A stretch of 64,000 bases of DNA from a virus (IMGVR_UViG_3300027413_000002), one strand, 5' to 3'. Positions 1,718-23,624 are shown, counted from the first letter of the stretch. Made by a program: numbers and translations. Notes: generated by a model not told the origin, from the sequence alone.

Positions 1718-1724
1718 AGAAGTT

Positions 1725-1742: not shown

Positions 1743-1751
1743 TTCCCCAAA

Positions 1752-2021: not shown

Positions 2022-2095
2022 AATAAAAATTTAAACAACATTTAGGTTTTAACGTCTTCCGACGATCAGCCACCTCGGCTAATTCAGTATGGTTC

Positions 2096-2524: not shown

Positions 2525-2819
2525 TTATATACTCCAATAGTCCAATAGCCAAAATTACGCTGATAACAGCATTCAAAATAATGAGAGCACGGTCGTGCCA
2601 AGCGATGGCAACATATGTCCACCCAGCAGTACCAACAATACTGAAAATTAAATCCATGAAGTGAAATCCTGCTGATCGACAAACGACCGCACTGATGATC
2701 ATCGTAGTAGCAAACCACTTAACATACCAATCCAATGTATGTTTTGGAGTAGCAGACTTGAATATTCTGTTCGAGTTTTCTAACTCTTCTTTGGTTACAC
2801 TAGGGTCTACTTTAGACAT
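2514..2819 (-). CDS. small multi-pass membrane protein
   Basis: Three hydrophobic segments after LDWYVKW. Confidence 0.7.
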   Translation of the reverse strand: MSKVDPSVTKEELENSNRIFKSATPKHTLDWYVKWFATTMIISAVVCRSAGFHFMDLIFSIVGTAGWTYVAIAWHDRALIILNAVISVILAIGLLEYISGH

Positions 2820-3252
2820 TTAACAGTGCCTCTTTCATAATCTCTTCTTCACGAGCGTATGCATCGATCTCCCAAGGTTGATCGTTATACGGTGTATTCG
2901 TGAAGGTCTCACCTTCCCAGATGACGACATTAACTAAGGTCTGAGCGTCACCAGTCTGCAGCAGTTGCAATCCGACATTTTCTAGGCGACCAGTAATAAT
3001 CTGTTGAGCGTGAATAAGTTCGTGAGCAATGTTCCGCATAATATCTTCTTCTGGGAGTGCCTCTCCCTGAACGTGGGTCGCAATCTCAACATCGATCTCA
3101 TCAGTGTCGCCATAACAATACCCACCAGCGTCACCATCACACTTCTTCTTGAATTCAATAGTAACTTCGGTAAGGGAATCTTGTATGCCCAAAACAGACC
3201 CACAAGCGTGGATATAATCGGAATAATTCGTTTCGTCAGTGGTATAAATCAT
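2812..3252 (-). CDS. putative HExxH zinc metallopeptidase
   Basis: IAHELIHAQQ ... PWEIDAY. Confidence 0.7.
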   Translation of the reverse strand: MIYTTDETNYSDYIHACGSVLGIQDSLTEVTIEFKKKCDGDAGGYCYGDTDEIDVEIATHVQGEALPEEDIMRNIAHELIHAQQIITGRLENVGLQLLQTGDAQTLVNVVIWEGETFTNTPYNDQPWEIDAYAREEEIMKEALLNV

Positions 3253-3279
3253 AACAATCTCTCTCTCAACTACACAACC

Positions 3280-3307
3280 ATTATACTACAACAGATGGAG
3301 AAGTCAA
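3280..3307 (-). promoter_or_regulatory. sigma70-type early promoter (16-bp spacer)
   Basis: TTGACT-N16-TATAAT followed by GAGAGAGA RBS. Confidence 0.8.
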
Positions 3308-3314
3308 GCACTAA

Positions 3315-3899
3315 TTACAAATAAATCCAATTAATTTCTGGGTACATATCAATGACTTTCATGCGTTGTTCTTCCCACTCAGCTAATCTATACCCATCAT
3401 CGTCCATAAGGTGCTGGTTGTGTAGGTGAACAAAGTCTCCCATGCCTGCGAGATATATCGTCTTGAATCCTTTCTCGGCAGCATCCCACATCGCCATAGT
3501 ACCTGACGCCATGGGGAATGGAAGACTCTCGAACGACACATTAGATACCTCGTCTTTTGCATCGAGATAAGTATACACGCACTGTTCGCCTTCACCGCTG
3601 ATCACACAACCATTGTTCGTATACTCATTGACATCTGGATTTGCATAAGCATCCAATCCTAGCATGCTCACAGCTATCTCGCTGGGGATGTGTTTCCAAT
3701 CGAGGAATAAACAGTTTCCCTTGTAGTTCCGATAGATGCCATGTTGTGCCAGAGGGTCAGTCGAGACAATCCACTCAAACGGGATACTCTCCTTATATGC
3801 TAGATTACACCCATATATGGATGACTTTCCAATAAATACGGATAAATCTAGTTGTTCTCTAGATGCCCCATTTCCTAAAATTAAAGCCGAATCAAACAT
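3315..3899 (-). CDS. putative glycosyltransferase-like / Rossmann-like protein
   Basis: ALILGNGASR, IYGCN, SG..A, IYLAGM motifs seen in MAF/DUF115- and GT29-like folds. Confidence 0.45.
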   Translation of the reverse strand: MFDSALILGNGASREQLDLSVFIGKSSIYGCNLAYKESIPFEWIVSTDPLAQHGIYRNYKGNCLFLDWKHIPSEIAVSMLGLDAYANPDVNEYTNNGCVISGEGEQCVYTYLDAKDEVSNVSFESLPFPMASGTMAMWDAAEKGFKTIYLAGMGDFVHLHNQHLMDDDGYRLAEWEEQRMKVIDMYPEINWIYL

Positions 3900-3915
3900 A
3901 TAATATCCTAATCCT

Positions 3916-3923
3916 TATAAATA
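3916..3923 (+). promoter_or_regulatory. T4-type late promoter TATAAATA
   Basis: Exact motif upstream of + strand ORF 3949 with GGAGA RBS. Confidence 0.75.
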
Positions 3924-3948
3924 TAATTATACACTGGAGACCCCATCA

Positions 3949-4413
3949 ATGCCAAGTTACATACAAAAAAGAACACCGCTCACTGCAGTCACTGCAGACC
4001 ATACTATGGTCATATCAGGTGAAGCTACCTCAGAAGAAGCATGGGAGGCGATCAAACTCAAGTTTCCAACATTCAGTGGTGCACGACACTCCGAAGAACA
4101 TGTCAAGTATTCAAGACAATTCCTTGAAACAATCGCTATAAACAATCAACGCATAGACAACGACGAAGCAGAGATCTTTAACAAAGTTGCAGAGATTGGT
4201 ATCTGGTTATATATTGAAAACTGCATTCACGACGAAGTTACTCGGATAGTTTCTTGGGACATCGTTGAGTATTTCAGAGATCAAACTGCTTTAACTACTG
4301 CTGAAACTTGGTTGAAATCATCAAACGTGTTCAACAATCACGCAGAAAGAGCAAACCCCTCGATATACACTGCTGTAGATTTCCACAGACCATACAGAGA
4401 GCCAGAAGGCTAA
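3949..4413 (+). CDS. hypothetical late protein
   Basis: 154 aa ORF with late promoter and RBS. Confidence 0.7.
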   Translation: MPSYIQKRTPLTAVTADHTMVISGEATSEEAWEAIKLKFPTFSGARHSEEHVKYSRQFLETIAINNQRIDNDEAEIFNKVAEIGIWLYIENCIHDEVTRIVSWDIVEYFRDQTALTTAETWLKSSNVFNNHAERANPSIYTAVDFHRPYREPEG

Positions 4414-4631
4414 CTTGATATCTGGCTCATACTCTTTGTAGTGTAACCCTGATCAGCACAGAAGTAATCCAACCACTGGACTGCAGCATCGAAGTCTGGG
4501 TCTTCTAATTCTTCACCAGTCTCTCTCTGTGCTGTGTTCAAGATACCATATATATCGACATCTTCTGCCATGTCCTGTTGCAGAACCACGGTCTCTGCAA
4601 ATCCGCATACTCTATCAAATCGATTGTTCAT
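4410..4631 (-). CDS. hypothetical protein
   Basis: Start at MNNRF with GAGG RBS. Confidence 0.55.
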   Translation of the reverse strand: MNNRFDRVCGFAETVVLQQDMAEDVDIYGILNTAQRETGEELEDPDFDAAVQWLDYFCADQGYTTKSMSQISS

Positions 4632-4638
4632 AAAAACC

Positions 4639-4824
4639 TCAACTATTGTAAATACCAAATGTAAGAATTGCATCTCCATACTTATGTAGGGAGGATTGAA
4701 AGTCCTCATCGCGCATATAGTATGAAGTGACAACCTCTTCTGTTGACTTGCCAGTCTGGCTGTCTATCACATAATGCTCGATGAACCACTTAAAATTGTT
4801 CTTGGGGTCAGGAAACGGTTTCAT
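4639..4824 (-). CDS. hypothetical protein
   Basis: 61 aa, ATGA-coupled to upstream gene. Confidence 0.55.
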   Translation of the reverse strand: MKPFPDPKNNFKWFIEHYVIDSQTGKSTEEVVTSYYMRDEDFQSSLHKYGDAILTFGIYNS

Positions 4825-5321
4825 ATCAGACGCTCACCGTGTGTCGTGATTTCGGTCATAGAAAGAGAAGCACCCAAACGAGGATCCTTATTCTTACTAC
4901 CATTCAACATACGGTCATATGCTCGCTTCAGCTTCGGTGTCAGGAGTTTCAATACATCCTCACCAGACAGCTTCCACAACTCGACCACCTTACCACCCTC
5001 ATACCGAGCATGATAATGATTCTTGTATTTGGCGATCTTCTGGTTGCGCAGGTAGTTTAACTGCTTGCGCCAAGTCGGTTGAACCGAGATCGCATTGTAT
5101 GTCGCGTTGATACGAGGAGCAATGGTAGACTTGTATTCACAACCACCGTCTTCATCGTAACCATCCGCGCCAGACAGAGTATCGCTCACCTTGTGACCGA
5201 GTAACCCAGCCATATGAATCTCCTTGGAACGAGCATAGGAGAAGGGATCGCCCCAACCATTCTCTTCACAAAGGTCAAACATCTCTTCATACAGCTTACG
5301 GAATTTTGCTTCATTAGTCAT
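4821..5321 (-). CDS. putative PD-(D/E)xK nuclease
   Basis: RSKE...GADGYDEDGGCEYKS, D-x(n)-ExK active-site pattern; start MTNEAKF after promoter and RBS. Confidence 0.55.
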   Translation of the reverse strand: MTNEAKFRKLYEEMFDLCEENGWGDPFSYARSKEIHMAGLLGHKVSDTLSGADGYDEDGGCEYKSTIAPRINATYNAISVQPTWRKQLNYLRNQKIAKYKNHYHARYEGGKVVELWKLSGEDVLKLLTPKLKRAYDRMLNGSKNKDPRLGASLSMTEITTHGERLI

Positions 5322-5350
5322 ATCTATTTCCTCTCTCAGAATATACAACC

Positions 5351-5378
5351 ATTGTACTACATCGAGCACAAAAGTCAA
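5351..5378 (-). promoter_or_regulatory. sigma70-type early promoter (16-bp spacer)
   Basis: TTGACT-N16-TACAAT. Confidence 0.75.
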
Positions 5379-5381
5379 GCG

Positions 5382-5810
5382 TTAAATGATGCCCTCGTCA
5401 AATACTCTCTGGGCATAGATCTCTTGAAGTTTGAATGCCTCTTTCTCCCATGGCATCCTCTCGTATGCAGTACCGTATCCATAGACGGTCTGTTTCCAGC
5501 GTATCTTTCGAGCACATGCCTTGCGATCAAAGAAGTCCACCATCTCTTTCTTAACAAACTGCTTCACGTGAATCAACTCGTGACAGATTGTCTTAACGAA
5601 CTCCTGCATCTTCAGTCGACTGTCCACCTTCACAACAAACAGACGATCTTCTAACTCATTACAAGAACCATCTAAGCCATCCAGCTTCTCTAGCTGTAAC
5701 ATCACATCGACCTTTCGATACTCAGGTAGAGTCTGTTTCAACATAAAAGAAGCGACAGCAGAAGCCATCTCTCTTTGCCATGCCTTACCACCAGTAACAG
5801 ATACCATCAT
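5382..5810 (-). CDS. putative HExxH zinc metallopeptidase (paralog of 2812-3252)
   Basis: ICHELIHVKQ ... PWEKEAF. Confidence 0.7.
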   Translation of the reverse strand: MMVSVTGGKAWQREMASAVASFMLKQTLPEYRKVDVMLQLEKLDGLDGSCNELEDRLFVVKVDSRLKMQEFVKTICHELIHVKQFVKKEMVDFFDRKACARKIRWKQTVYGYGTAYERMPWEKEAFKLQEIYAQRVFDEGII

Positions 5811-6535
5811 GCTTCTATCCTTCTTTTGAATAATTGAGATACTTTCCGATTCCAGACATCACCATTATGAGAACCATCTCTGCTGGTGAAATCAAACTCG
5901 GGAAGATCGCTCTGTCGGAGTAGAATAAGTTCTTTCTCTCTACACGCTTCTTCTATCTGGACAACACATTTCTGTTCGATCTCTTGATTCTTTTCATCGT
6001 CAAAGAGATCCAACTCAGGATACTCTTTAAAGAGAAGCTGGATTCTTTCCCAGTGATTCTCTTCCAAATGTCCTGCAATAACATCTTTGTACATGAGAGT
6101 AGCAAGCTGCTTTAGATTCCAGTTCTGAATGTGCGTGTACGTCTCTGTCTGAGGATTGTAGATCTCTCGTCTGGCACTCTCGGGGAGAATGATGAAGACT
6201 GTCTTGGCAGGTAGAAGTGGAATCCACGCTGTCACCAGTCTCGCCACGGTTTGTGGACTGCAACCAGATACACCAAAGTTTGCTGCATTGAGTAGAAATG
6301 GCCAAGTCAAATGATTCTCCAACTCATAGCCAAATGTATGTGAGCAACCGAACGCAACTCGTTCAGCTTTTGCGTGGATAATCTCTCCCTCGCGAAATCC
6401 ATAGCTGTCACAGTTATAGACTATGTGACGATGTTGATTCCCTTGCAACTGCAGCATTGCCGAGACCATCGGATTTAATGTCCTCAAACACACATCCGTG
6501 TTCTGCATATAACCATGGGCATAACGCTCCATCAT
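5807..6535 (-). CDS. SGNH/GDSL-like protein (paralog 1)
   Basis: YGFRE, FGCSHTFG, NFGVSGCS, SRDGSH. Confidence 0.6.
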   Translation of the reverse strand: MMERYAHGYMQNTDVCLRTLNPMVSAMLQLQGNQHRHIVYNCDSYGFREGEIIHAKAERVAFGCSHTFGYELENHLTWPFLLNAANFGVSGCSPQTVARLVTAWIPLLPAKTVFIILPESARREIYNPQTETYTHIQNWNLKQLATLMYKDVIAGHLEENHWERIQLLFKEYPELDLFDDEKNQEIEQKCVVQIEEACREKELILLRQSDLPEFDFTSRDGSHNGDVWNRKVSQLFKRRIEA

Positions 6536-6852
6536 CGTCCAATGTCCTTAATGCTAGACTTGCCAATTACCTGATACGCACCCTTATTATACGCAGGAGC
6601 AACGGTAAAGTTCTTACTCTCCTCCACTTTCCACGAAGTGTCTGCACTCGCAGAACTGCCGATGCCCATTCCCCCAGAGGGATACTTAGAGCGATGCGAC
6701 TCCGCTTCAGCACGACGAGCGATCTCGTCCTCCGACAATCGCATCGGTTTAAACTCTTTCTTACTCGCACGAACAGCAGGAGCAGTCTTGGCGCGAACCT
6801 TGCGCTTGCGTCCGTGCATGTCGTATCGCAAAGATCCAGAGTAATTCATCAT
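6532..6852 (-). CDS. conserved basic T4-like phage protein
   Basis: C-terminal APAYNKGAYQVI motif recurrent in T4-like phages. Confidence 0.65.
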   Translation of the reverse strand: MMNYSGSLRYDMHGRKRKVRAKTAPAVRASKKEFKPMRLSEDEIARRAEAESHRSKYPSGGMGIGSSASADTSWKVEESKNFTVAPAYNKGAYQVIGKSSIKDIGR

Positions 6853-7226
6853 GCCGCGACTCCCATCGAAGCCAACTCACAGAAGCCAGCAGGCTCAACC
6901 ATGAAGAACTTTCCCTCACGCTCGATGATGTCACCAACACTCAGTGAATGTAGGTCACGCAATTTGTAGTACGAACCATCAGGGCGATATCCCTCGATCC
7001 AACCAAACTCAGAGACGCGCTCCTCATCTTCTGGAGACCAGCGATTCATAATGTGAAAGCAATCTTCTAAATCAGTGGTATCAACAACACACACCTTAGA
7101 GAAATACTCAGTGAAGTAAGAATAATCCCAAGACTGCGAACCGAAGCAGGTAATCTCTCGATAAGCATTCATCATCTCGGGGGAAGGAGTCTCTCGGTCG
7201 AGTTTAAACTGATATACAGTAATCAT
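6849..7226 (-). CDS. YodL-like domain protein
   Basis: VYQ...LED.F...HSLSVGDII...GF. Confidence 0.55.
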   Translation of the reverse strand: MITVYQFKLDRETPSPEMMNAYREITCFGSQSWDYSYFTEYFSKVCVVDTTDLEDCFHIMNRWSPEDEERVSEFGWIEGYRPDGSYYKLRDLHSLSVGDIIEREGKFFMVEPAGFCELASMGVAA

Positions 7227-7366
7227 TACACAGCACCTCGAACCATATCAGACACTGGCTTATGATCAGTCAGATCCCAGAGATACTGGGGAAGTAGTGA
7301 ATAAGACTTCAGTGGAGCAATCCACGACACGCCATCAGTGAAACGAACATAGTATAAAGGATTCAT
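7226..7366 (-). CDS. small hypothetical protein (46 aa, MNPLYYVRF...)
   Basis: First ORF after early promoter with GAGAGAGA RBS; TAATG-coupled to next gene. Confidence 0.65.
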   Translation of the reverse strand: MNPLYYVRFTDGVSWIAPLKSYSLLPQYLWDLTDHKPVSDMVRGAV

Positions 7367-7398
7367 ATTTCTCTCTCTCAACTCTTTAATGTACAGCT

Positions 7399-7426
7399 AT
7401 TATAGCACATTGGAGATAAATGTCAA
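7399..7426 (-). promoter_or_regulatory. sigma70-type early promoter (16-bp spacer)
   Basis: TTGACA-N16-TATAAT with A-tract upstream. Confidence 0.85.
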
Positions 7427-7463
7427 CAACTATTTTTGTATAACGACACACTCTCTTAGACAA

Positions 7464-11569: not shown

Positions 11570-11908
11570 TTATCCGATCATCCTTTGGTCACCCATGTAG
11601 TGTGGACCAGTCCACGCGACAGAGTACGCTTCAAAGATGTTACCACGAGCGTGGTTTCGAGTAGGAGCAGCCCAACTTGCTGCCTTCAGGATGTCTCCAC
11701 GCTTAAACTTCTTGTCATTGTCGACAGAGACGATGAAACCCCAGACAGAGTTTCCAGTTAGAATTTTGGTATATTTGCGACCCTCTTCAACAGTGACAGA
11801 AGAGTAGAACTGTTCGTTCATCTCTTTCTTGATATCATCGTCAGGAGCCATAAAGCGTGAGTAGTCAGCTTTGATTTTTTGGATCAGTGTTTCGATTTCG
11901 CTATTCAT
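11570..11908 (-). CDS. conserved phage hypothetical protein
   Basis: GRKY.KI...SVWGF...GDILKAASW.AP...ARGNI. Confidence 0.75.
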   Translation of the reverse strand: MNSEIETLIQKIKADYSRFMAPDDDIKKEMNEQFYSSVTVEEGRKYTKILTGNSVWGFIVSVDNDKKFKRGDILKAASWAAPTRNHARGNIFEAYSVAWTGPHYMGDQRMIG

Positions 11909-11922
11909 ATTTCTCTCTCTCT

Positions 11923-11968
11923 TCTCAATTTATACTCTATTATATCGCAGAGAGGACAAAAGTCAACA
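11923..11968 (-). repeat. 46-bp promoter-containing direct repeat, copy 1
   Basis: 44/46 identical to 23579-23624; contains TTGACT-N16-TATAAT. Confidence 0.85.
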
Positions 11969-12019
11969 ACTATTTTTGTCTAAGAGAGAGTTTTTTATAA
12001 CTTTTTTGTATATGCCGAG

Positions 12020-12280
12020 TTACTCGGTTTCACCGCACCAGTTACACTCTTCACCTTTACCGACACCCATTAAGGATGCCTCGGCAGTGCAGTAGTGTTC
12101 CCAAGTGAGATCCTCGCCTTCGCGTCCACGGTCTCTGTTACCATCCGCATTCAACTCAGTCATATCCTGTTGTTTGTGCTTCTGATTCTTATCGCCATAA
12201 ATGGCGTCCCAGTTATCGCTAAATCTTCGTGCGTCAGTTTTTCTTCTGCCGCTTCCCTTACCACCGTGCCAGCTACCCAT
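12020..12280 (-). CDS. hypothetical protein (WHGGKGS motif, C-terminal Cys cluster)
   Basis: TAATG-coupled to kinase gene. Confidence 0.65.
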   Translation of the reverse strand: MGSWHGGKGSGRRKTDARRFSDNWDAIYGDKNQKHKQQDMTELNADGNRDRGREGEDLTWEHYCTAEASLMGVGKGEECNWCGETE

Positions 12281-12828
12281 TACATGCATCCATCTATGAA
12301 TTCGATTATTTTACGAGTGTCTTCAGGTGTAGTGTGCTCAAACGATCGAATGTCTCCGTCATCAAACAGATTAGCACCAAACTCGTTCTTGATGTTTCTT
12401 AGCTTGGTGAACCGAGACTGAATGAATTGCTCGCTCTGGTCACTTCCGCGATCTATATAGCGTTGCTCTCGAATGTCGTCCGAGACAGTCAGTTCAATGA
12501 TAACCAGCTGATGTCCAGCTTGCTTTACTGCGTGGAAGAATGAGGTTGTGGTCAGTCGATCGCCTTCAAACAATACGACATCGGCAGGACTGCCCTGTAG
12601 ATATTCAATGGCTTTGGGTTGAACCGCCATCGAGAGACGATCCGTCCCAGAGAACACTTCACCCTCTTCATACTTACCCATGAGGAATACATTCTTCTTA
12701 GATGAAATGTAACCCTCAACCAGATCGACTGGTTTACAAAGAAACCACTCATCATCCTTCATAAATTCTTTAATGAGAGTCGACTTCCCAGATCCTGGGA
12801 CTCCGACAACTGCTATAACTGTAGACAT
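12280..12828 (-). CDS. P-loop nucleotide kinase, putative 5-hydroxymethylpyrimidine DNA kinase
   Basis: Walker A GVPGSGKST, GTDRLS, FEGDRL, R...RGS lid; adjacent to aGPT-PPlase2 and TET/JBP. Confidence 0.7.
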   Translation of the reverse strand: MSTVIAVVGVPGSGKSTLIKEFMKDDEWFLCKPVDLVEGYISSKKNVFLMGKYEEGEVFSGTDRLSMAVQPKAIEYLQGSPADVVLFEGDRLTTTSFFHAVKQAGHQLVIIELTVSDDIREQRYIDRGSDQSEQFIQSRFTKLRNIKNEFGANLFDDGDIRSFEHTTPEDTRKIIEFIDGCM

Positions 12829-13178
12829 GCTTTGTCCTCGTTGGTTGGTGCATCTTCAAGATCAAGTTCTATTCGAACAAGTTTATCGTATTTTTTAGTT
12901 CCATTTGCTGAAACTCTTTCGCCAGTGTCTGGGTCTGTGACTCGACAATCCCACGCTTCACGGCAGACTCGCCTCACTTCTTCAGTAGAGCCAGTGACAG
13001 GATAAAACGCATTTATTGGGTGCATTTGTTTGGTGATCTCGCAGTATTCCAGTTTGACTTCATCCTTAATATCCAACGCTTGCATCAGAGGATTATCTTT
13101 AGCAAACCGAACTCCGTCCAGAGTCCTGCCATATACAGCATTCGTCTTGTTGCTCCGAGTTTTGGTAGTTTTCGTCAT
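12813..13178 (-). CDS. hypothetical protein inside modification operon
   Basis: 121 aa, overlaps both neighbours. Confidence 0.65.
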   Translation of the reverse strand: MTKTTKTRSNKTNAVYGRTLDGVRFAKDNPLMQALDIKDEVKLEYCEITKQMHPINAFYPVTGSTEEVRRVCREAWDCRVTDPDTGERVSANGTKKYDKLVRIELDLEDAPTNEDKACLQL

Positions 13179-14188
13179 AGTGGTAATACTCCCTCCACTG
13201 ATTGTTCATCATCATACATCATCTCCAACCGATCCAGCTTGCCTGTATTCAGGAATGACGCATACTTCTCTTTGATTATGCCTGTTTTATTTGATAAAGT
13301 CAAGTCCAAAGTTTCGTTTCTTGCTTGCCACAAGACCTCCCACTCGATACCAGACCAGCCATCTTGCTCGACTTTCAGTATCTCTTCAGCTTGTCTGTCC
13401 AGATAATATCCGAGGTATCGACCATGACTGGTGCGGAACAACTTCTTGAATGAACACAGACACGTCTCCATTGAGAAGTAATTGATGTCCTTCGCCAGTT
13501 CAGGATATTCAGAGTGCATTTCACTGATCAGTTCAGTACCCTGCGCTTCGAGATCCGCATACTCTCCAGCTGTCAGTTTGGTATTCACCTTGTCCTCCTG
13601 ACCGAGCGCATACAACCATCCGTTGCGGTGTGATCGAGATCCAGAGTAATCGCTGAACATCAGACTTGTTGGCTCGATCGGGACATCAGCGGTGTGCTTC
13701 AGCTGTTGCATATAGAACCATGTCGAGTAGCGTCCGAACTTATACAGACCATCCTTGAGAGCAGTCCAGAGATTATCGAAGTTCTGCTCTTCATTGTCGC
13801 CATAGTAAGATTCCAGCATCTGTCGTTGTGTACGCTTCTCTGTAAACTTTTCATACGAGGCGAACATATCAGCCAGATGTCCTTTACTCCACTTGGTGTC
13901 GGTCTGGTATCGGAGTCGCTTATAGTTCTCAGTGTTCCACGCATTCATCCGATCGAATGTAGCCAACTCGAAATCGGGGAACTCATTCATCAGAACCCAA
14001 GATGTCGGGAGGTAGTATGTGTTGCCGTACAACCAAGCAAACCAGAGTCGTTGCTCATCGTTATGCTCATACCGTGTATTGATGTAATTGGCGAGCCAGA
14101 TGGCAGGGTCGCAATCATTATATCTGACAGACCACGCATACCATCTCTTGAATGCCTCGCGTCTGTTTTTAGGTTCTCTATAATCCAC
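13175..14188 (-). CDS. aGPT-PPlase2 family / amino acid:DNA transferase
   Basis: D.DP, W.AWLYG.TY, FGRYS.WFY.Q.L, ETCLC.FKK, RY.GYY.DRQ motifs of the HhH-fold alpha-glutamyl/putrescinyl thymine pyrophosphorylase clade 2. Confidence 0.75.
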   Translation of the reverse strand: MDYREPKNRREAFKRWYAWSVRYNDCDPAIWLANYINTRYEHNDEQRLWFAWLYGNTYYLPTSWVLMNEFPDFELATFDRMNAWNTENYKRLRYQTDTKWSKGHLADMFASYEKFTEKRTQRQMLESYYGDNEEQNFDNLWTALKDGLYKFGRYSTWFYMQQLKHTADVPIEPTSLMFSDYSGSRSHRNGWLYALGQEDKVNTKLTAGEYADLEAQGTELISEMHSEYPELAKDINYFSMETCLCSFKKLFRTSHGRYLGYYLDRQAEEILKVEQDGWSGIEWEVLWQARNETLDLTLSNKTGIIKEKYASFLNTGKLDRLEMMYDDEQSVEGVLPL

Positions 14189-14729
14189 GTGCTTCAGTCC
14201 AATAGTCTTTCACGCAACCACCCATGCCCTTTTTAGTGACTTCTTTTTGTGTGTATTCATCCCACTCCCAGACCAGATCACTGACGCTTGGTCCAGCGAT
14301 ACGTCCAATAGAGAGAAACGTGTCTGATGCTTGGATTCCCCAAGACTTGAAACCTACCCGTTCATATGCAGTAAGAGCAGGAGCATTGATTGATACTCGG
14401 AAGTGTTTGAGTTGTGCCATATATGCTCGATACACAGCGTCTTCACATAACTTACGGAACACACCCTTGCCTCTAGCGTCTGGTATTGTGACGATCCACT
14501 TCAGATTGGCGTAGTTCTTCATCATCTTCGTTGCGATGACTCCCAAGACTTTACCATCCTCGTAGAAAGCACGGATGCAGTCTTGACAGTTGTCGTCAAT
14601 GATACCACGTCTCATCTTCGAGAAGAATTTGTCAGTCGTTTTGTTTGCTTCACAAAACTCAGACCAGTCATCAAATGACAGGTTGGAGATCCCGTCCTGA
14701 ACCTGTTGATTCGACTCTGATTGATTCAT
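14178..14729 (-). CDS. GNAT family N-acetyltransferase
   Basis: Acetyl-CoA motif A (TIPDARGKGVFRKL) and N..A...YERVGF; likely start MNQSE. Confidence 0.75.
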   Translation of the reverse strand: MNQSESNQQVQDGISNLSFDDWSEFCEANKTTDKFFSKMRRGIIDDNCQDCIRAFYEDGKVLGVIATKMMKNYANLKWIVTIPDARGKGVFRKLCEDAVYRAYMAQLKHFRVSINAPALTAYERVGFKSWGIQASDTFLSIGRIAGPSVSDLVWEWDEYTQKEVTKKGMGGCVKDYWTEARGL

Positions 14730-15315
14730 TAATGATTCCAGCACGTTTTGCAATATCCTTCGTTGATGTGATAATATAACCGTTGTCCACAGTAGTCTTG
14801 TACAATGGTCGCTTACCATTCCGATACAGGTTGATTTTCTTATCTGATGTAAGTTCTATGACAGATAGAGATGAGTCTCTCCAGATCTCGAGTGGATGAT
14901 ATCCTGCCTCAATCGTTCGATTTAGCAGTTCAGTATCGTTCTGTGTGGTCGTCTCATACCCATACAGCCTATCCCAGTTCTCTGGAAGTTCTTGTGTGAC
15001 CACGCCATTGTGAACGATTGATAGATCGTCACTGGTCTGTATGGGTTGATTGAATCGGAGGTCACTGGTTGAATATCGACAGTGACCAATAAGGTACAGG
15101 TTGCCATCCTCATTGAGCAATTGCTCCATCTTTGAGAGAGGAGAGAAGTCAGGAGCGGGGACAGCTTCAATGAGAGTGGCAACCTTACCGTTCTTTACAT
15201 ACGACAAACCTGTCGCGTGTAACCCTCGAATACGAGATTCAAGGAAAACATTCCGCACCAGTTCCAAGTCAGAAGAACTGGGGGAAGTTAATCGTGCGCC
15301 AATTACTGCGCACAT
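14671..15315 (-). CDS. stand-alone class II (Ntn) glutamine amidotransferase
   Basis: N-terminal M-C nucleophile, RG.HATG, GHCRYST, NQP, HNG, NDTE. Confidence 0.85.
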   Translation of the reverse strand: MCAVIGARLTSPSSSDLELVRNVFLESRIRGLHATGLSYVKNGKVATLIEAVPAPDFSPLSKMEQLLNEDGNLYLIGHCRYSTSDLRFNQPIQTSDDLSIVHNGVVTQELPENWDRLYGYETTTQNDTELLNRTIEAGYHPLEIWRDSSLSVIELTSDKKINLYRNGKRPLYKTTVDNGYIITSTKDIAKRAGIINESIRVESTGSGRDLQPVI

Positions 15316-16622
15316 CAGAACAAATCCGCGAGTGATGCCGTGCCAGCAGATGCTTGGGGATGATATTTGTCAAGCATCTCCTGTCCACCATGCTCTTGGA
15401 GGTAATCATACCATTCAGTGGCATCCCACATCTTGGTTGATACACCGTTCCAGAGAGGACGCCACTCGGGATGTTCTTCATTGAGTCGTCTGTAATCAAC
15501 ATACTGACGACGCAAAGTCTCGTAATCAAATGAACCCAACAGAGCCATCTTCTCACGAGCATAGGCGACGATCGAGATACGAATCGGATCGTCACCAATG
15601 ATTTCCGTATTACCGTGAATGCCTTCGTGATTGTTCACGAGCAGGAGATCTCCTGGATGCAACTCAACAGCAATGCGGAACTCAGGTAACACAAACAGAC
15701 AACCATCCCAACCTTTTTTACCATCTGGGGAGATGCAGCTGATATTAGAGAAACCCTCGGTGTAATCACCAGCGTCTCTGTGTGCAGCTGTGCGGAATGT
15801 ACGGTTGACTGTCAGTGTTGTGTATGGTGTATCAGGTACAACATACTTCGGGTCAATCGCGTCCGTAAATGCTTTCTGTTTCGCATATCGCTCGGGGAGT
15901 AACTCCTCGAACTGACGTGCCAGAGTCTGCAGATATGGATACGACTTTGCAAACAGTTCAGGATTCTTTTCGGTGTATGCTGTAGCGCGACCATATGGAA
16001 TCCGAGGATACCGATCGAACCAGCCAGCAATACCAGAATTCACTGTGTTTGCGTAGGAAGTGTCGGAGATATAGTTCTTGACCATATCTTTAGCTGCATC
16101 TTTGCGCTCTGAGGCAGACATAGGACGAACCGAGTCCAACCACCAGTCAAAGAATTCACTATACTCGACACCAGTTTTCTTGATTCGATCTCTGAGCCAA
16201 ACACGACCACGACCTGCCTCATCTGGCTTATGTCGAGCGATCGCATTTTCGATAGCATCAAAGTCTTCATCAAGAGATGAGTCAGGTGCAGTAAATATAG
16301 CGTCCAAGATATCCTCTTGAAGAGGTGTCACCCAGTCTCGCTTACCATTCTGCCCTGCTCGTGGTCCAGCTGCGAGTCCACGATTCTGTGTCTCGATTGC
16401 CGCTGGAGCCAATCCTTCAAATGCACCCTCTTGTTCAGCGGATGAAAACACACCCTTGCGGAACTTGAAGATTACATTGTGTTCACCGTTGCCCTCGTTG
16501 AATCTGTCGAGAGCATACAAATCTGTATCTGCTGTGATGATCTGGTCATAACTGGAATCATCCAGCCACTTACCAAGTTTATCGTCACAGTCTTGCTTTT
16601 CAATCGTTAATTCTTTTACCAT
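15315..16622 (-). CDS. TET/JBP family 2OG-Fe(II) 5-methylpyrimidine dioxygenase
   Basis: TTLTVN..FRTAAHRDAGD (HxD), HGNTE (distal His), RISIVAYAREKM (2OG-binding Arg). Confidence 0.8.
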   Translation of the reverse strand: MVKELTIEKQDCDDKLGKWLDDSSYDQIITADTDLYALDRFNEGNGEHNVIFKFRKGVFSSAEQEGAFEGLAPAAIETQNRGLAAGPRAGQNGKRDWVTPLQEDILDAIFTAPDSSLDEDFDAIENAIARHKPDEAGRGRVWLRDRIKKTGVEYSEFFDWWLDSVRPMSASERKDAAKDMVKNYISDTSYANTVNSGIAGWFDRYPRIPYGRATAYTEKNPELFAKSYPYLQTLARQFEELLPERYAKQKAFTDAIDPKYVVPDTPYTTLTVNRTFRTAAHRDAGDYTEGFSNISCISPDGKKGWDGCLFVLPEFRIAVELHPGDLLLVNNHEGIHGNTEIIGDDPIRISIVAYAREKMALLGSFDYETLRRQYVDYRRLNEEHPEWRPLWNGVSTKMWDATEWYDYLQEHGGQEMLDKYHPQASAGTASLADLF

Positions 16623-16637
16623 AATATATCATCCCGT

Positions 16638-16820
16638 TTAATTTAGTCCGATGAGTCCCCACCCGTGATTGGCTATTGCGTTGAGTATAATAAACCAACA
16701 TGTAGCCATATGAGTAATCCACCACACAGTACGGATAGCAGCAACAGTATTAGCTTGCTTATCTGTCTCGCCAACTTTTTCACCTAGACTTTTTGCCCAT
16801 ATTCTCCACCATTTATACAT
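16638..16820 (-). CDS. small membrane protein conserved in marine T4-like phages
   Basis: WRIWAKSLGEK...A.IRT plus hydrophobic tail. Confidence 0.65.
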   Translation of the reverse strand: MYKWWRIWAKSLGEKVGETDKQANTVAAIRTVWWITHMATCWFIILNAIANHGWGLIGLN

Positions 16821-16847
16821 TATACACCAGTCCCCTGTAAATGTCAA
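16819..16847 (-). promoter_or_regulatory. sigma70-type promoter (17-bp spacer) upstream of modification operon
   Basis: TTGACA-N17-TATAAT, perfect consensus. Confidence 0.8.
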
Positions 16848-17230
16848 GCATTGTTTCTTTTTTCTCTCACATCTTTGACTGCTGCTTTGATCGCATCTTC
16901 TGCTAACACAGAACAATGAATCTTAACTGGGGGTAATGCCAGTTCTTCAGCAATCTGGGTGTTTTTGATCTGCTCGGCATCATCGATGCTTTTACCTTTG
17001 ACCCACTCAGTCAGCAATGAGCTGGAGGCAATAGCTGAACCACAGCCATAGGTTTTAAACTTGGCATCTTCAATAATGCCATCGTCGTTGACCTTGATTT
17101 GTAGACGCATTACATCACCACAGGCTGGTGCACCGACCATACCAGTTCCAACATTTTCTTCTTGTTCATCAAGTTTCCCGACATTGCGTGGATTCTCATA
17201 ATGATCGATTACTTTATCGCTGTATGCCAT
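16844..17230 (-). CDS. iscU: Fe-S cluster scaffold IscU
   Basis: MAYSDKVIDHYENPRNVG, APACGD, GCGSAIAS, LPPVKIHC. Confidence 0.95.
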   Translation of the reverse strand: MAYSDKVIDHYENPRNVGKLDEQEENVGTGMVGAPACGDVMRLQIKVNDDGIIEDAKFKTYGCGSAIASSSLLTEWVKGKSIDDAEQIKNTQIAEELALPPVKIHCSVLAEDAIKAAVKDVREKRNNA

Positions 17231-18005
17231 CTCCCATCGCCTCGCTCAGAAGTTTTTTGTTGCGCACAACCTGATTGTAGTTGTAAGCGTTTCTTAAAAT
17301 AGACAAATCCACTCCTAGTTGACTTGCCGACTTCATAAAGGCACTGGTATCTTTCGGGAAGCAGTGCCCACCAAATCCTCGTTCTTCCGTCACAGTCATA
17401 TGGCTGTCACCAATACGTTCGTCACGGCTGACAAGATCCTTCACGTTATTATAATTTATACCTGCTTCTTCACAGAGATCGTAGATCTGATTGAAGAATG
17501 CAACCTTTGCAGCCAAGAAGCTGTTGACGGTATATTTCATCACTATGAGTTCTTTTGGATCGCGTCTGAACATCTCACAACCCTGCTTCCAGAATAGCGA
17601 TGCCCAGAACAGATCATCACCCCCACCAAAATACATTGACTCTCTGTTATTTATGTCCTCAAGCGCATGCTCTGCTCTCAGGAACTCAGGGCTGAATGTG
17701 ATTTCGTGGTCTGGATAGATCCCTTGGATATAATCCCATCCCTCGAGAGAGATAGTGCTTTTGATCAGGATAGGAATCCCAGCAGGACACTGATCAAGGA
17801 CATTAAACACATTGCTCATATCGCAATGACCATCCTTACTATCAGACATCGGTGTTGACACTGCGATAATCACAGCTTCTGGATTACCGATCTTATTCTT
17901 ATTGTGTGCTGGATCCACAATCGTTATGTCGTGCAACTTATGAACCGACAGAGCCATTTCGTGCGCTCGACCGACAAACCCATATCCAAAAATTGTTATC
18001 TTCAT
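17214..18005 (-). CDS. UDP-glucose/GDP-mannose dehydrogenase family protein (lacks C-terminal domain)
   Basis: GYGFVG, IKST, PEFL, K...N, GFGGHCFPKD. Confidence 0.85.
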   Translation of the reverse strand: MKITIFGYGFVGRAHEMALSVHKLHDITIVDPAHNKNKIGNPEAVIIAVSTPMSDSKDGHCDMSNVFNVLDQCPAGIPILIKSTISLEGWDYIQGIYPDHEITFSPEFLRAEHALEDINNRESMYFGGGDDLFWASLFWKQGCEMFRRDPKELIVMKYTVNSFLAAKVAFFNQIYDLCEEAGINYNNVKDLVSRDERIGDSHMTVTEERGFGGHCFPKDTSAFMKSASQLGVDLSILRNAYNYNQVVRNKKLLSEAMGDGIQR

Positions 18006-18430
18006 TTGTATTGCTCCACGATTATATCATCACATTTGCTGAGGAACTTAATACCATCATCGCTTCGGAGGTGTGGTTTTTCCCAGACTACGCGCATAAT
18101 TCCTGCTTGGTAGATTAGTTTGGCGCAATCCATACAGGGTGCAGTGGTGCAGTATATCGTTGCGTCCATACAATTTTCTGATGACCTTGCGACCTTGGCG
18201 ATGGCATTCGTCTCAGCGTGCAACACTTCTGGTTTAGTGACTGGCATATTACCAAACTCGTCTGTGGTCTCACAGTTATTGTCCCAGCCAGAAGGCATGC
18301 CATTGTAACCGATCGAAATGATTCGGTTGTCCTTCACAATCACAGCACCAACCTGTAATCGTTTAGCGGTCGAGAGTTCCGAGTAAATCCTCGCAACCTT
18401 CATGTGTGCTTTATCCCATTTATTCATCAA
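18002..18430 (-). CDS. cd: dCMP deaminase
   Basis: VGAVIV, GYNG, HAE.NAI, PCxxC. Confidence 0.9.
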   Translation of the reverse strand: MMNKWDKAHMKVARIYSELSTAKRLQVGAVIVKDNRIISIGYNGMPSGWDNNCETTDEFGNMPVTKPEVLHAETNAIAKVARSSENCMDATIYCTTAPCMDCAKLIYQAGIMRVVWEKPHLRSDDGIKFLSKCDDIIVEQYK

Positions 18431-19061
18431 ATTCTCCTATCGATCCATAACTCAAAATCATATGGTATCTTGTTTCTTCGCTTGCGTTATACACATAATG
18501 GTCTCGGCAGGTGTCGACATTATATAATTTACCCTGTTCTAGATGATACACTTTCTGATTAGCGACATCTGACGCATCATACATAAAACAATACGGGTTT
18601 GTAACTACAGGATAGTGATACTTTCTAACACCATCTCTATGTAAAACCAATCCAGATTTTGGCTTCAACTCATTCAATGTAACCTTATGGAAGTCCACAC
18701 CAATCTTGTCTACTGCTTCTCTTACCTTTTGTGGAATTTCCTTGTTCCAATATTTGTAGTCGTCATCCATATAATTCAACAGACCTTTAGCATATGCCAC
18801 ATTGGTGAAGTGTTTGGTCATTCCTATCTCAAACACTTCTGGGTCATTGGCGTGTTTACCCGCAAACTCTTGCAATTGCTCTGGTGTCAAACTTATCTTT
18901 GGTGTATTCTCCTGCCAGTAGTTTGACTGCTCTGAGAATCTATTCTTCAGAAATATCTCAGCGCGACTAAACTCTTCAACAAAGGTAGATTGTTCTATTA
19001 TTATACTCAATTCGTCAACGATGTCAAGCACTAAATCTATTTCTTCTACCATATCGATCAT
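18420..19061 (-). CDS. 2OG-Fe(II) oxygenase (Asp/Asn beta-hydroxylase-like)
   Basis: LHRD, H.P..TN, HYVYN, RYH. Confidence 0.7.
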   Translation of the reverse strand: MIDMVEEIDLVLDIVDELSIIIEQSTFVEEFSRAEIFLKNRFSEQSNYWQENTPKISLTPEQLQEFAGKHANDPEVFEIGMTKHFTNVAYAKGLLNYMDDDYKYWNKEIPQKVREAVDKIGVDFHKVTLNELKPKSGLVLHRDGVRKYHYPVVTNPYCFMYDASDVANQKVYHLEQGKLYNVDTCRDHYVYNASEETRYHMILSYGSIGEFDE

Positions 19062-20377
19062 CTGTCTGCCCAGTCCTCGGCTTTCCAGCCCGAGCCTTTA
19101 TTTTCGTTTGGGTCAAATGGCAGGGGTTCTATTGAATCAAACCACTCAGCTGCCTCTTCGTCTAGAGACCAAATTAAATCTTGGAATTTTACATTCTCAC
19201 AGAAGTTGTCTCGATATAAAGTATAGCCCTTCATCTTTCTGATGATTTCTTCGTTGTCAAAGATGTGTGCCATCTTCTGCTTTTCATCACGATAGATTCG
19301 GAGGATATCCAACCCTCTCTCGAATCCTTCGTTCATATATTTTTTCAGAGATTCCTCCGCATTCGTGACAATGCGGTCGAAAATATGTTGAGGGAATAAT
19401 CTTATGTCCGCGAGACCGTGACCGCCTCCTGGATATTCTAGTGGTTCATTGACATAGATGTGATCATAAAACCTCACATCTTTATCGAAATACAGACGCT
19501 GATACTCCTCCATATTCATAATCATGGCAGAGGTATAGACAGCATTGACTTCGATTTCGAATCCGAGATCGTAATACTCGTTCCAAGTTTCCCAGCATTC
19601 ATCCCACTTCGCGCCATCGCGATTATATTCAAACACATCTCCCACGCCATCCATTGATGTTCTAAGTTCAATGTTTAATGGCTTTATCATCTCGGGAATA
19701 GACTTATTCTTCCACGTGTTGTGAGTGAGGTTGGTGTTATATTGTATTCGGATAGTCTTGACATAATCCGAGTACTCTGGGTCGTCTAGCAACTCAACAA
19801 GTTTGTCAGTAACTTTCCAGTGTACTGGCATCATCATCGGCTCGCCACCAGCCCAGTTTATCTTCTTACATCTTTTTTCCATAATAGATCGGATGATAGA
19901 ATCTGCTTGTGCTTGCTCATATGGTTTGTCCATATTATTTGGCCAATCAAAGCCATACATCTTCTTCTCGAGAGTCGCCCAAGTCGAACTGAGTACTGGT
20001 GTGCAAGTCTGGCATTGTAGATTACAGTGGACTGATTTATGTTCAAAATATTCTGGCTCGACATCCATCGAACCATCCTCGTTCACAAGGGGAATGAGTT
20101 CATCGACATTCCATTCTTGTAGTCCCTCTTGACGCAATGATTCAAGACCGTTGTCCTCCCGATAGTAACACACACCACACATGTCCAGCTTTTCTCCAGC
20201 CAGCATCCTGAGACGAATACTCTTCATCTCCTCGCTGTTCCACCACTCTTCATCAGTACGCTGTTTGTCTTGTGATACTCTGGGTGTTGATGAACAACAG
20301 AGTCTGCGTTCATTGCGCGTCCCTGTGTAGACGTGGTTCATAATATATGGACAGATTACATCAGACATCCCACTCAT
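19058..20377 (-). CDS. radical SAM protein with N-terminal SPASM/twitch-like Cys cluster
   Basis: CNLQCQTC, AGGEP, YNTN, SMDG; N-terminal CP..CC..CxxC. Confidence 0.85.
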   Translation of the reverse strand: MSGMSDVICPYIMNHVYTGTRNERRLCCSSTPRVSQDKQRTDEEWWNSEEMKSIRLRMLAGEKLDMCGVCYYREDNGLESLRQEGLQEWNVDELIPLVNEDGSMDVEPEYFEHKSVHCNLQCQTCTPVLSSTWATLEKKMYGFDWPNNMDKPYEQAQADSIIRSIMEKRCKKINWAGGEPMMMPVHWKVTDKLVELLDDPEYSDYVKTIRIQYNTNLTHNTWKNKSIPEMIKPLNIELRTSMDGVGDVFEYNRDGAKWDECWETWNEYYDLGFEIEVNAVYTSAMIMNMEEYQRLYFDKDVRFYDHIYVNEPLEYPGGGHGLADIRLFPQHIFDRIVTNAEESLKKYMNEGFERGLDILRIYRDEKQKMAHIFDNEEIIRKMKGYTLYRDNFCENVKFQDLIWSLDEEAAEWFDSIEPLPFDPNENKGSGWKAEDWADR

Positions 20378-23562: not shown

Positions 23563-23578
23563 ATTTCTCTCTCTTTTC

Positions 23579-23624
23579 TCTCAATTTATACTCTATTATA
23601 CCGCAGAGAGGACAGAAGTCAACA
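23579..23624 (-). repeat. 46-bp promoter-containing direct repeat, copy 2
   Basis: 44/46 identical to 11923-11968. Confidence 0.85.

Follow-up and report, generated by a model that had tools for sequence, protein, structure and literature searches.

In the formation of base J, hypermodification begins with the hydroxylation of thymine in DNA by JBP1/2 and continues with glucosylation. In the tRNA nm5U pathway, which also involves MnmC, ammonium may replace glycine as a substrate of MnmEG, leading to aminomethyl-U directly; the Mnm enzymes act on tRNA substrates by folate/FAD chemistry and no phosphate leaving group is involved. A comparable choice between glycine and ammonia is proposed below for a phage amino acid:DNA transferase (AADT). 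In phages ViI and M6, the AADTs gp247 and gp51 act together with 5-HMUDK by a kinase-then-displacement logic, using serine or glycine on replicatively incorporated 5hmdU and having no glutaminase partner. PaMx11 makes 5-acetylaminomethyl-dU by means of gp46–gp49 and a 5hmU DNA kinase (Lee et al. 2021, PMC8989533; structures 8Z2M–8Z79, PMC11472151), where 5hmdU stems from a ThyA-type hydroxymethylase, glycine is added and the amine is exposed by the FAD lyase gp47. Lastly, TET/JBP genes have been reported as 'consistently linked' with GATases (PF13522/PF13537), PF18751 kinases and PF18724 AADTs in the ParB-associated clade C1 T-dioxygenase clusters (O'Toole et al. 2026, PMC13229309), a report which gives the GATase no role and names no product, while the role of the GATase is called not yet known in PMC8989533.

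We here analysed a window of 64,000 nt, the whole stretch of DNA considered, from IMGVR_UViG_3300027413_000002, an uncultured marine T4-like phage, which carries hypermodification genes on the minus strand at 12280–16622. A preliminary description had placed six overlapping or abutting minus-strand genes behind one consensus promoter, and all six ORFs were recovered with the same coordinates, in the order TET/JBP dioxygenase (TET), glutaminase (GAT), GNAT, AADT, 121-aa ORF and kinase, separated by gaps of −1, −59, −11, −4 and −16 nt. The promoter, of sigma70 type (TTGACA-17-TATAAT, 16819–16847, minus strand), matches the consensus at 12/12 positions, for which our own arithmetic gives a chance expectation of ~0.005 in 7 kb; it lies at −225 from the TET start and is directly followed by a TATAAATG late-promoter-like box. 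The unit itself is larger than described, since a 60-aa and an 89-aa ORF, both missed previously, join the six to give eight in total. The Pfam matches of the five core genes, i.e. TET, GAT, GNAT, AADT and kinase, all exceed the curated cut-offs.

The first of these, a 435-aa protein (15315–16622, minus strand), is a TET/JBP-family Fe(II)/2OG 5-methylpyrimidine dioxygenase by its matches to Tet_JBP (PF12851, E 1.4e-18, 67.1 bits against a cut-off of 34.9) and phrog_24024 (E 5e-146). The iron triad and 2OG-binding arginine (H281-x-D283, H336, R348) are invariant in 19 sequences and align to TET2, the catalytic domain of which is matched by the family profile (E 1.4e-4). We predict that it is a thymine dioxygenase making 5hmU in DNA. 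The window encodes the flavin-dependent thymidylate synthase ThyX (35022–35687, minus strand, PF02511, E 4.1e-41), so the phage makes ordinary dTMP, and a dCMP deaminase (18002–18430, minus strand, PF00383, E 2.6e-24) that would supply dUMP for ThyX. ThyX is present in 5/5 related contigs, while a ThyA-family hydroxymethylase was found in 0/5. No C5-methyltransferase was found in the same five contigs, one of which is a complete 161.7-kb genome, nor among the scanned ORFs of the window. Taken together, these three observations leave thymine as the available 5-methylpyrimidine, and the substrate is probably thymine already present in DNA. Oxidation of 5-methylcytosine, with decoration of a 5hmC-derived cytosine in place of thymine, would be conceivable from the dioxygenase itself, as TET/JBP enzymes are able to oxidise 5mC, some phage members act on both 5mC and T (PMC8256090, PMC13229309), and the best solved relative of the TET profile is TET2. 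However, the missing methyltransferase argues against it, kinases and AADTs of these families act on 5hmU (PMC8989533), and T has been inferred in the literature as substrate of methyltransferase-less clusters of this type, which renders a cytosine pathway most improbable.

Downstream in the unit, the kinase (182 aa, 12280–12828, minus strand) belongs to the 5-hmdU DNA kinase family (Ploopntkinase3, PF18751, E 9.2e-16), with a score of 58.4 bits against a cut-off of 27 over nearly the full profile length, and displays the Walker A motif GVPGSGKST. The 337-aa AADT (aGPT-Pplase2; 13175–14188, minus strand) matches ADDT (PF18724, E 2.2e-18, 67.3 bits against a cut-off of 26.2) and is ~28% identical to ViI gp247, its closest characterised homologue, across 94% of its length. 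Its invariant E241 and C245 align with the active-site residues E243 and C247 of PaMx11 gp46 (PMC11472151), to which it is just ~20% identical. W146 and K150, by which gp46 binds glycine, are replaced by Y154 and F158, both invariant, an exchange that is merely suggestive as to whether a free amino acid could be the nucleophile here. For the GNAT acyltransferase (14178–14729, minus strand; Acetyltransf_7/1/10, E 2e-7 to 3e-6), the longest ORF extends to 14819, but relatives point to the ATG at 14729 as the more likely start, giving 183 aa. The acyl-CoA binding motif A (RGKGVF) is canonical in part, and 29% identity over 85 aa to PaMx11 gp48 is consistent with the predicted function as N-acetyltransferase of 5-aminomethyl-dU. 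The stand-alone class II (Ntn, Cys1) glutamine amidotransferase domain (GAT, 214 aa, 14671–15315, minus strand) matches GATase_6 (E 3.3e-9, 37.3 bits against a cut-off of 27). C2, directly after Met1, as well as R30-G31, R80, N103-G104 and D127 do not vary among 23 sequences; all GlmS-type glutaminase residues are kept in the family alignment, and the profile aligns with the N-terminal glutaminase domain of GlmS, beginning at Cys1. The assignments of dioxygenase, transferase, kinase, amidotransferase and GNAT made in the preliminary description are thus borne out by Pfam matches and motifs.

We propose that the operon, driven by a promoter of host type, serves to hypermodify thymidine entirely after replication. 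Thymine in phage DNA would be hydroxylated to 5-hydroxymethyluracil by the TET/JBP enzyme (step 1) and 5hmU would be converted to 5-phosphomethyl-dU by the PF18751 kinase (step 2). The AADT would then flip the base out, and NH3, freed from glutamine by the class II glutaminase while its Cys1 active-site face is docked on the AADT, would displace the phosphate, leading to 5-aminomethyl-dU (step 3); GAT and AADT would together constitute a two-subunit glutamine amidotransferase, the acceptor of which is a base in DNA. Finally, the amine would be N-acylated by the GNAT, most simply to 5-acetamidomethyl-dU (step 4), and the modified thymines may shield the phage DNA against host nucleases. From the families, catalytic residues, co-conservation, predicted complex and fusion reported here we infer which substrates are used, that ammonia is transferred and what product results. 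That a thymidine hypermodification pathway is encoded appears highly probable, the supply of NH3 to the AADT by GAT is reasonably likely, and an acetyl as the final group is an even call; the scheme as a whole, a glutamine-fed post-replicative conversion of thymine to an (acetyl)aminomethyl base, is the best explanation we can offer and is held with moderate confidence.

The five core genes occur all together in 26/27 fully covered related viral contigs. Our census comprised 28 fully covered loci, 27 of them metagenomic, at 45–90% protein identity, and detected TET in 28/28, kinase in 27/28, GAT in 27/28 and GNAT, as far as HMM-detectable, in 26/28. GAT and GNAT, the co-conservation of which with TET and AADT the preliminary description had set as a test, are both present in 26 of the 27 metagenomic loci. 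As the census spans one AADT clade of related phages, this co-conservation partly reflects shared descent. Additional genes are inserted among the core genes while the core set remains intact; genes added in relatives comprise an amidoligase-like gene, a second GNAT, a gene for a 430-aa protein and one for a radical SAM enzyme.

Prediction of the AADT:GAT heterodimer yielded ipSAE values of 0.82, 0.91 and 0.91, while the best of three controls reached 0.00; this score is the model's own confidence. In the calibration of the tool, the mark was reached by 58/80 solved complexes and by 2/110 mismatched pairs, a calibration that applies roughly here, where our own alignments were used. The runs share at least 77% of contacts, with a partner pLDDT of at least 86. 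On the GAT side, the predicted contacts (residues 1, 28–33, 81–83, 104–110, 167–170 and 184–187) constitute the active-site face, while on the AADT side they comprise residues 38–46, 68–77 and 279–285, mostly invariant columns. These segments flank helices which align with Y47/Y51 and K261/D262/E265 of PaMx11 gp46, residues lining the pocket toward which the C5 substituent points (PMC11472151); the corresponding segments of ViI gp247 and M6 gp51 differ in sequence. It should be noted that the AlphaFold2 monomer of the AADT, from a shallow alignment, is poor, with a mean pLDDT of 55.5 and the lowest confidence in the interface segments. The model thus predicts GAT to be a glutaminase subunit docking on the AADT, in a heterodimer where the active site of the glutaminase faces invariant segments of the AADT, a feature new here, and the AADT is predicted to be the acceptor (synthase) subunit using NH3.

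A natural fusion, P0122 (588 aa), joins a complete GAT (1–188, starting with MC) via a ~55-aa linker to a complete AADT (245–584). Every Cys1 amidotransferase requires this GAT-first order from N- to C-terminus. GlmS, PurF and AsnB likewise have their N-terminal Cys1 glutaminase, with Arg, Asn-Gly and Asp, in first position, its active-site face toward the acceptor domain, as predicted here. Their acceptor is however a sugar, PRPP or aspartate synthase, while here it would be an all-helical DNA base-flipping transferase, and in most of the phages here GAT and acceptor are separate polypeptides. The neighbours of P0122 are a ThyA-like gene and a kinase from another family (PF18748), and this context is independent of TET. 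It was found in one contig only, and since GAT is fused to other neighbours in single contigs as well (P0041, GAT-Amidoligase_2; P0154, GAT-GNAT), the fusion alone is weak evidence. In a PolA-type phage contig, GNAT, GAT and AADT form an adjacent triad with a kinase nearby, and GAT adjoins AADT in locus L176. The earlier suggestion that the glutaminase provides NH3 to the transferase hence gains in-silico support of three independent kinds, namely predicted complex, fusion, and adjacency in unrelated phage backgrounds.

Amidoligase_2-like genes are linked to the same GAT family in 8/28 loci, and locus L173 and LUZ24-like phages show this linkage with no AADT nearby, so that GAT may serve another partner in some systems. 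Taken further, the glutaminase could be unrelated to the AADT, belonging to an amidoligase or gamma-glutamyl peptide-metabolite system, as in LUZ24-like phages, and simply lying in the same hyperplastic island. LUZ24/tf-type proteins, encoded among COOH-NH2 ligase, Amidoligase_2, ATP-grasp and gamma-glutamyl cyclotransferase genes, contain a GAT domain with ~29% identity to the GAT studied here; the fusion P0041 points the same way, as does L173, where amidoligase-like genes occur and an AADT is lacking within 6 kb. We nevertheless consider this quite improbable for the present locus: the window has no amidoligase, GAT stays beside TET, GNAT, AADT and kinase in 27/28 loci, fusion to or adjacency with AADT recurs in two further phage backgrounds, and the AADT:GAT ipSAE of 0.91 stands against 0.00 for the best control.

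A more serious contender, though still unlikely, is that the nucleophile used by the AADT is a free amino acid (Gly, Ser, Glu or Gln), as it is for the enzymes of M6, ViI and PaMx11, and that the glutaminase acts elsewhere, by amidating the adduct carboxylate, deamidating a glutaminyl adduct or hydrolysing a gamma-glutamyl bond. Instead of acetamidomethyl-U, this would yield an N-acetylated, amino-acid-derived thymine. Ntn GATase-fold amidohydrolases share their catalytic residues with glutaminases, and the two are consequently indistinguishable by sequence, which we count in favour of amino acid transfer. The AADT is moreover a full-length homologue of ViI gp247, the genes added in relatives suggest elaborate adducts, and amino acids or a polyamine (putrescine) are the substrates of all AADTs characterised so far (PMC8989533). 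Against this, amidation of a carboxylate needs an ATP-dependent activating enzyme, which is absent from the window and from 19 of the 27 complete metagenomic loci; in the predicted complex it is the AADT, and not DNA, that covers the Cys1 face; the order in P0122 is typical of ammonia-channelling enzymes; and the glycine-binding Lys/Trp of gp46 are Phe/Tyr here. The cluster furthermore has no lyase or decarboxylase for an amino-acid adduct: PaMx11 requires its flavin lyase to expose the amine (PMC8989533), while the Pfam scan found no flavin or FAD/DAO-type enzyme in the cluster. A simple hydrolase route to the amine is likewise disfavoured, since a hydrolase would presumably be unable to trim an N-alpha-linked amino acid to the amine.

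Returning to direct amination by glutamine-derived NH3, the proposed pathway resembles that of PaMx11 in its 5hmU DNA kinase, the E...C active-site motif of the AADT, a GNAT that would acetylate 5-aminomethyl-dU, and the predicted end product. The operon differs in having TET/JBP and a glutaminase in place of hydroxymethylase, flavin enzyme and glycine step; the PaMx11-type set of glycine:DNA transferase, FAD-dependent N-alpha-GlyT lyase gp47 and ThyA-type dUMP hydroxymethylase is not found here. With the clade C1 clusters it shares the Pfam families. Those clusters are, however, defined by a neighbouring ParB (PF02195), and the co-located ParB of the ParB-dependent 5mYOX subclass is absent from the five related contigs, including the complete genome, and from the 40 scanned ORFs of the window (no ParB_N), in a profile-level search that a very divergent ParB-like fold could escape. 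A point against the scheme is the report by O'Toole et al. (PMC13229309) that several clade C1 enzymes lacking ParB showed no activity in E. coli.

The novelty claimed initially has to be narrowed, as the linkage of TET_JBP, kinase and AADT (plus GATase) is already published (PMC8989533, PMC13229309), while role of the GATase and product are not given there. New here are the predicted GAT-AADT heterodimer, the 588-aa fusion and the GNAT-GAT-AADT triad in the PolA-type phage. We see a slightly better than even chance that this AADT clade is the acceptor subunit of an undescribed glutamine amidotransferase which aminates an activated base in duplex DNA, within a four-step post-replicative route. 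If so, thymine would be oxidised, phosphorylated, aminated and acylated without a modified nucleotide pool, an amino-acid adduct or a lyase, and the GAT-AADT module would be portable, being used also by phages that start from a dUMP hydroxymethylase.

Among the smaller ORFs of the unit, the 121-aa ORF (12813–13178, minus strand), one of the six genes counted previously, fills a slot of variable content and does not belong to the conserved core, with recognisable relatives in only 1–2 related contigs (L010, possibly L006), no Pfam, PHROG or atlas match, and no relation by hhalign to the c5 protein occupying the same slot elsewhere. The 89-aa ORF (12020–12289, minus strand), the last gene of the unit, overlaps the kinase end by 10 nt and has homologues at 36–57% identity in close relatives only. 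The hydrophobic 60-aa ORF (16638–16820, minus strand; phrog_1679, E 2.3e-14) is conserved, with 60-aa homologues in L005 and L007; it lies between promoter and TET, and its ATG overlaps the −10 box. The promoter is kept at the same position in close relatives, and distant ones have a site with 8–12/12 matches 60–290 nt upstream of TET, in about half of them with at least 10/12.

The modification genes of the window, which is part of an uncultured T4-like phage, lie in one packed minus-strand unit spanning 16847 to 12020. The phage affiliation is visible from the T4-type RNase H, both ribonucleotide reductase subunits, the dCMP deaminase and ThyX encoded in the window, and from a family B DNA polymerase approximately 50% identical to its cyanomyophage counterparts. 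The unit starts with a minus-strand promoter matching TTGACA-17-TATAAT at 12 of 12 positions, followed by a 60-aa ORF (phrog_1679), the TET/JBP dioxygenase (435 aa), the class II glutaminase domain (GAT, 214 aa), a GNAT, the amino acid:DNA transferase (AADT, PF18724, 337 aa), a 121-aa ORF of no family, a PF18751 P-loop kinase (182 aa) and, as last element, an 89-aa ORF. Starting at the TET stop, neighbouring genes overlap by 1 to 59 nt, and past the end of the unit a 111-nt gap contains a second promoter. The preliminary description had placed the operon and named its families correctly. Its list of six genes is to be extended by two additional small ORFs, its GNAT more probably starts at 14729, and the unknown ORF that it counted as a member, the 121-aa ORF, is not conserved and gave no match in Pfam, PHROGs, hhalign against the c5 family or the ESM Atlas. 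At the upstream edge, the 60-aa ORF begins with an ATG that overlaps the -10 box, so that early transcripts from the operon promoter would skip this start codon. Directly 3' of the -10 box, at 16811-16822, lies a TATAAATG box that deviates from the T4 late promoter consensus at one base.

The enzymes of the operon retain the residues expected of their families. In TET/JBP, H281-x-D283, H336 and R348 are invariant over 19 family members, including the orthologues of the cultured phages DLP_6, Cr30 and C48C1, and the family profile aligns the HxD, H and R motifs to human TET2. Over 23 GAT sequences, the Cys after Met1, R30-G31, H78-C-R80-Y-S-T83, N103-G104 and D127 are invariant, with the profile aligned from Cys1 onward to the GlmS glutaminase domain, while the kinase matches PF18751 across nearly the whole profile. 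The AADT shares approximately 28% identity across 94% of its length with ViI gp247, a characterised serine:DNA transferase (PMC8989533), and keeps E241 and C245, aligned to E243 and C247 of the solved PaMx11 gp46. The AADT had no match among PDB sequences, whether searched as a single sequence or as a profile, although gp46 is solved, and its family membership therefore rests on Pfam and ViI gp247.

We found at least 171 AADT relatives in IMG/VR and the GAT in more than 566 IMG/VR contigs. For a census, the ORFs of 85 loci were clustered and all frames were then searched with family HMMs, counting the 28 loci that had sufficient flank on either side. TET is present in 28/28, kinase and GAT in 27/28 each and GNAT in 26/28 of them, the exceptions being Caulobacter phage Cr30, in which only TET and AADT occur, and one contig that lacks GNAT. 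The anticipated co-conservation of glutaminase and GNAT is thus borne out for these loci, which all come from a single AADT clade of related phages. The gene order TET-GAT-GNAT-AADT-kinase is preserved although TET and kinase have diverged to 39–50% identity. Variable genes are interposed among the core genes or added to the cassette: an Amidoligase_2-like gene (~290 aa; locus L035, 5274-6146), a 430-aa unknown (L035, 6746-8032), a conserved 130-aa unknown between AADT and kinase (L035, 9017-9412), a conserved 238-aa protein after the kinase (L035, 10024-10719), a radical SAM enzyme (L059, 9020-10450), a low-molecular-weight phosphatase (L089, 9654-10091), a TnsA-like endonuclease and a second GNAT, so that some relatives' cassettes hold two GNATs. 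These expansions imply that the relatives, as a family, make related yet different final bases.

The central question is how the GAT acts within this set, for which the preliminary description had proposed supply of NH3 to the transferase. Prediction of the AADT:GAT complex gave ipSAE values of 0.82, 0.91 and 0.91, against 0.00 for three unrelated-protein controls; in the calibration of the tool, which is only rough here as own alignments were used, the mark was reached by 58 of 80 solved complexes and 2 of 110 mismatched pairs. Contacts agreed to at least 77% between runs, at a partner pLDDT of at least 86. No solved complex of this type is known to us, which makes a score owed to a memorised structure unlikely. 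In the predicted complex, GAT residues 1, 28-33, 81-83, 104-110, 167-170 and 184-187 contact the AADT, and this interface is the face bearing Cys1, the glutamine-binding Arg and the oxyanion Asn-Gly. On the AADT, residues 38-46, 68-77 and 279-285, mostly invariant columns, are in contact with the GAT and flank, by alignment, the helices equivalent to gp46 Y47/Y51 and K261/D262/E265, which line the pocket toward which the C5 substituent of the flipped base points (PMC11472151). The residues W146 and K150, with which gp46 holds glycine, are replaced by Tyr and Phe in the window AADT.

A search among representative proteins returned 344 GAT-family clusters at E below 1e-10, nearly all of them stand-alone proteins of 200–250 aa. 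One representative, P0122, is a 588-aa natural fusion of a complete GAT (1-188, starting MC), a joint of approximately 55 residues and a complete AADT (245-584), the latter 38% identical to the window AADT with the E...C motif kept. The glutaminase is N-terminal to the AADT, as Cys1 chemistry demands. This contig also carries a PF18748 kinase, of another family than PF18751, and a ThyA-like gene, making this a TET-independent version of the system. Further distant contexts were drawn from the same search and contig look-ups, while a locus search driven by the GAT profile gave only the same lineage among the 80 matches listed. A contig that encodes a family A polymerase has GNAT, GAT and an AADT (42% identical) side by side, with genes for a kinase and an amidoligase-like protein lying upstream, and in another short contig (L176) the GAT lies immediately upstream of the AADT.

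Chemically, hydrolysis of an N-alpha-linked amino acid would not be able to yield a primary amine. PaMx11 uses a flavin lyase to expose the amine (PMC8989533); a Pfam scan of the operon ORFs found no flavin enzyme. The chemistry would therefore point in the same direction as complex, fusion, neighbours and binding residues, namely to a GAT supplying the AADT. The proposed ammonia supply is in this way supported in silico by the predicted complex, P0122, the other genomic backgrounds and the binding residues, and it becomes more specific, with GAT and AADT as a putative two-subunit glutamine amidotransferase acting on DNA.

Several observations speak against such a coupling. The AlphaFold2 monomer model of the AADT (alignment of 19 close sequences) is poor, with a mean pLDDT of 55.5 and the worst confidence in the predicted GAT-contact segments. 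P0122 is known from one contig, and the GAT is also found fused to the neighbouring amidoligase or GNAT, each in single contigs. Moreover, L173 and LUZ24/tf-like Pseudomonas phages have GAT-family genes linked to genes of amidoligase type, and the regions covered show no AADT. L173 and L177, neither of which shows an AADT, are short contigs, and the gene may lie beyond their ends. An amidoligase-like gene stands beside the GAT in 8/28 loci, where the glutaminase could have two acceptors or the product could undergo further extension. In the LUZ24/tf-like phages (region 1449-7443 of Pseudomonas phage tf, L178), a distantly related GAT domain forms the N-terminal part of a 531-aa protein located among COOH-NH2 ligase, Amidoligase_2, ATP-grasp and gamma-glutamyl cyclotransferase genes.

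Regarding the modified base, ThyX is present in 5/5 related contigs, one of which is a complete 161.7-kb genome with terminal repeats, whereas a ThyA-family hydroxymethylase, a C5-cytosine methyltransferase and a ParB_N protein were found in 0/5 (including the complete genome), these five contigs standing in for the window phage. With ThyX present and hydroxymethylase and C5-methyltransferase not found in the relatives, thymine in DNA is the available substrate, and 5hmU would have to arise after replication. The same substrate reasoning has already been applied in the literature to such TET/JBP clusters.

Near letter-for-letter copies of the operon occur in marine and seawater metagenomes of approximately 19 studies, and contigs from four metatranscriptome runs cover it at 99% identity, for which DNA carry-over is possible and transcription is not implied. 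The breaks between contigs at 15231/15260 resemble branch points of the assembly. In a megablast comparison with cultured phages the operon had no match, and neither the window AADT clade (best approximately 30% identity) nor the window-type GAT (best approximately 29%) has a cultured phage member. In cultured T4-like phages, orthologous TET/JBP genes lie beside a TET-associated glycosyltransferase in DLP_6 (L001, 3030-3893), beside a UDP-galactopyranose mutase in C48C1 (L003, 8336-9346) and beside an AADT and a weak glycosyltransferase match in Cr30 (L002, 9003-11140). Since orthologous dioxygenases adjoin different downstream modules, the same oxidase appears to feed different decorations, and these three phages offer cultivable systems for thymine oxidation. 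The orthologues are annotated as 'SNF2 DNA repair protein' in DLP_6 and Cr30 and as hypothetical protein in C48C1.

To our knowledge, every characterised route to aminated thymines starts from 5hmdU incorporated at replication and passes through its adduct with an amino acid or polyamine. Whether restriction and some CRISPR systems can cut a phage depends on its DNA hypermodifications, and such modifications also supply enzymes for labelling DNA and for sequencing chemistry. The cassette is abundant (GAT in more than 566 IMG/VR contigs, near-identical operons in approximately 19 marine studies) and may consequently influence marine viral DNA in sequencing and host defence. Lee et al. 2021 described contigs with TET_JBP in place of a dUMP hydroxymethylase beside thymidine hypermodification genes (PMC8989533), and O'Toole et al. 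2026 reported ParB-associated clade C1 T-dioxygenases consistently linked with GATases, P-loop kinases and AADTs (PMC13229309), using for the latter three the Pfam models that match in the window operon. The gene set is therefore already in print, although the window operon differs from the published ParB-associated subclass in having no detectable ParB. In the literature searched, we found no GATase role, GAT-AADT complex or fusion, or pathway product; new are the proposed GAT role, the predicted complex and the fusion, and not the gene linkage itself. A glutamine-fed AADT, if true, would extend the amidotransferase superfamily to a new type of acceptor, namely a base in polymeric DNA, and would account for the GATase genes that both papers list near thymidine hypermodification genes with no function assigned. 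A five-gene operon working on ordinary thymine would be directly tractable in E. coli.

Just upstream of the operon (16844-20377) are genes for a NifU-like Fe-S scaffold (128 aa), a UDP-glucose dehydrogenase-like protein (263 aa, without the C-terminal domain), the dCMP deaminase, an Asp/Asn beta-hydroxylase-like 2OG oxygenase (213 aa) and a radical SAM protein (439 aa). We left the NifU-like gene out of the pathway as unique to the window, and the dehydrogenase-like, hydroxylase-like and radical SAM genes as conserved only among close relatives, in which the dehydrogenase-like protein and the deaminase are kept beside TET. A 62-nt direct repeat with 89% identical copies at 11907-11968 and 23563-23624, each bearing a minus-strand sigma70-type promoter, brackets an 11.6-kb island with the modification operon and resembles the promoter cassettes to which module shuffling in T4-type phages has been attributed. 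Both metatranscriptome and metagenome contigs have branch points at 11958-12008, as a dispersed repeat would give. Between the two ribonucleotide reductase subunit genes (30926-32377), a QueC-like protein (198 aa), whose match is confined to the C-terminal half of the profile, and a class I SAM methyltransferase could hint at a second modification of the 7-deazaguanine type or be a remnant.
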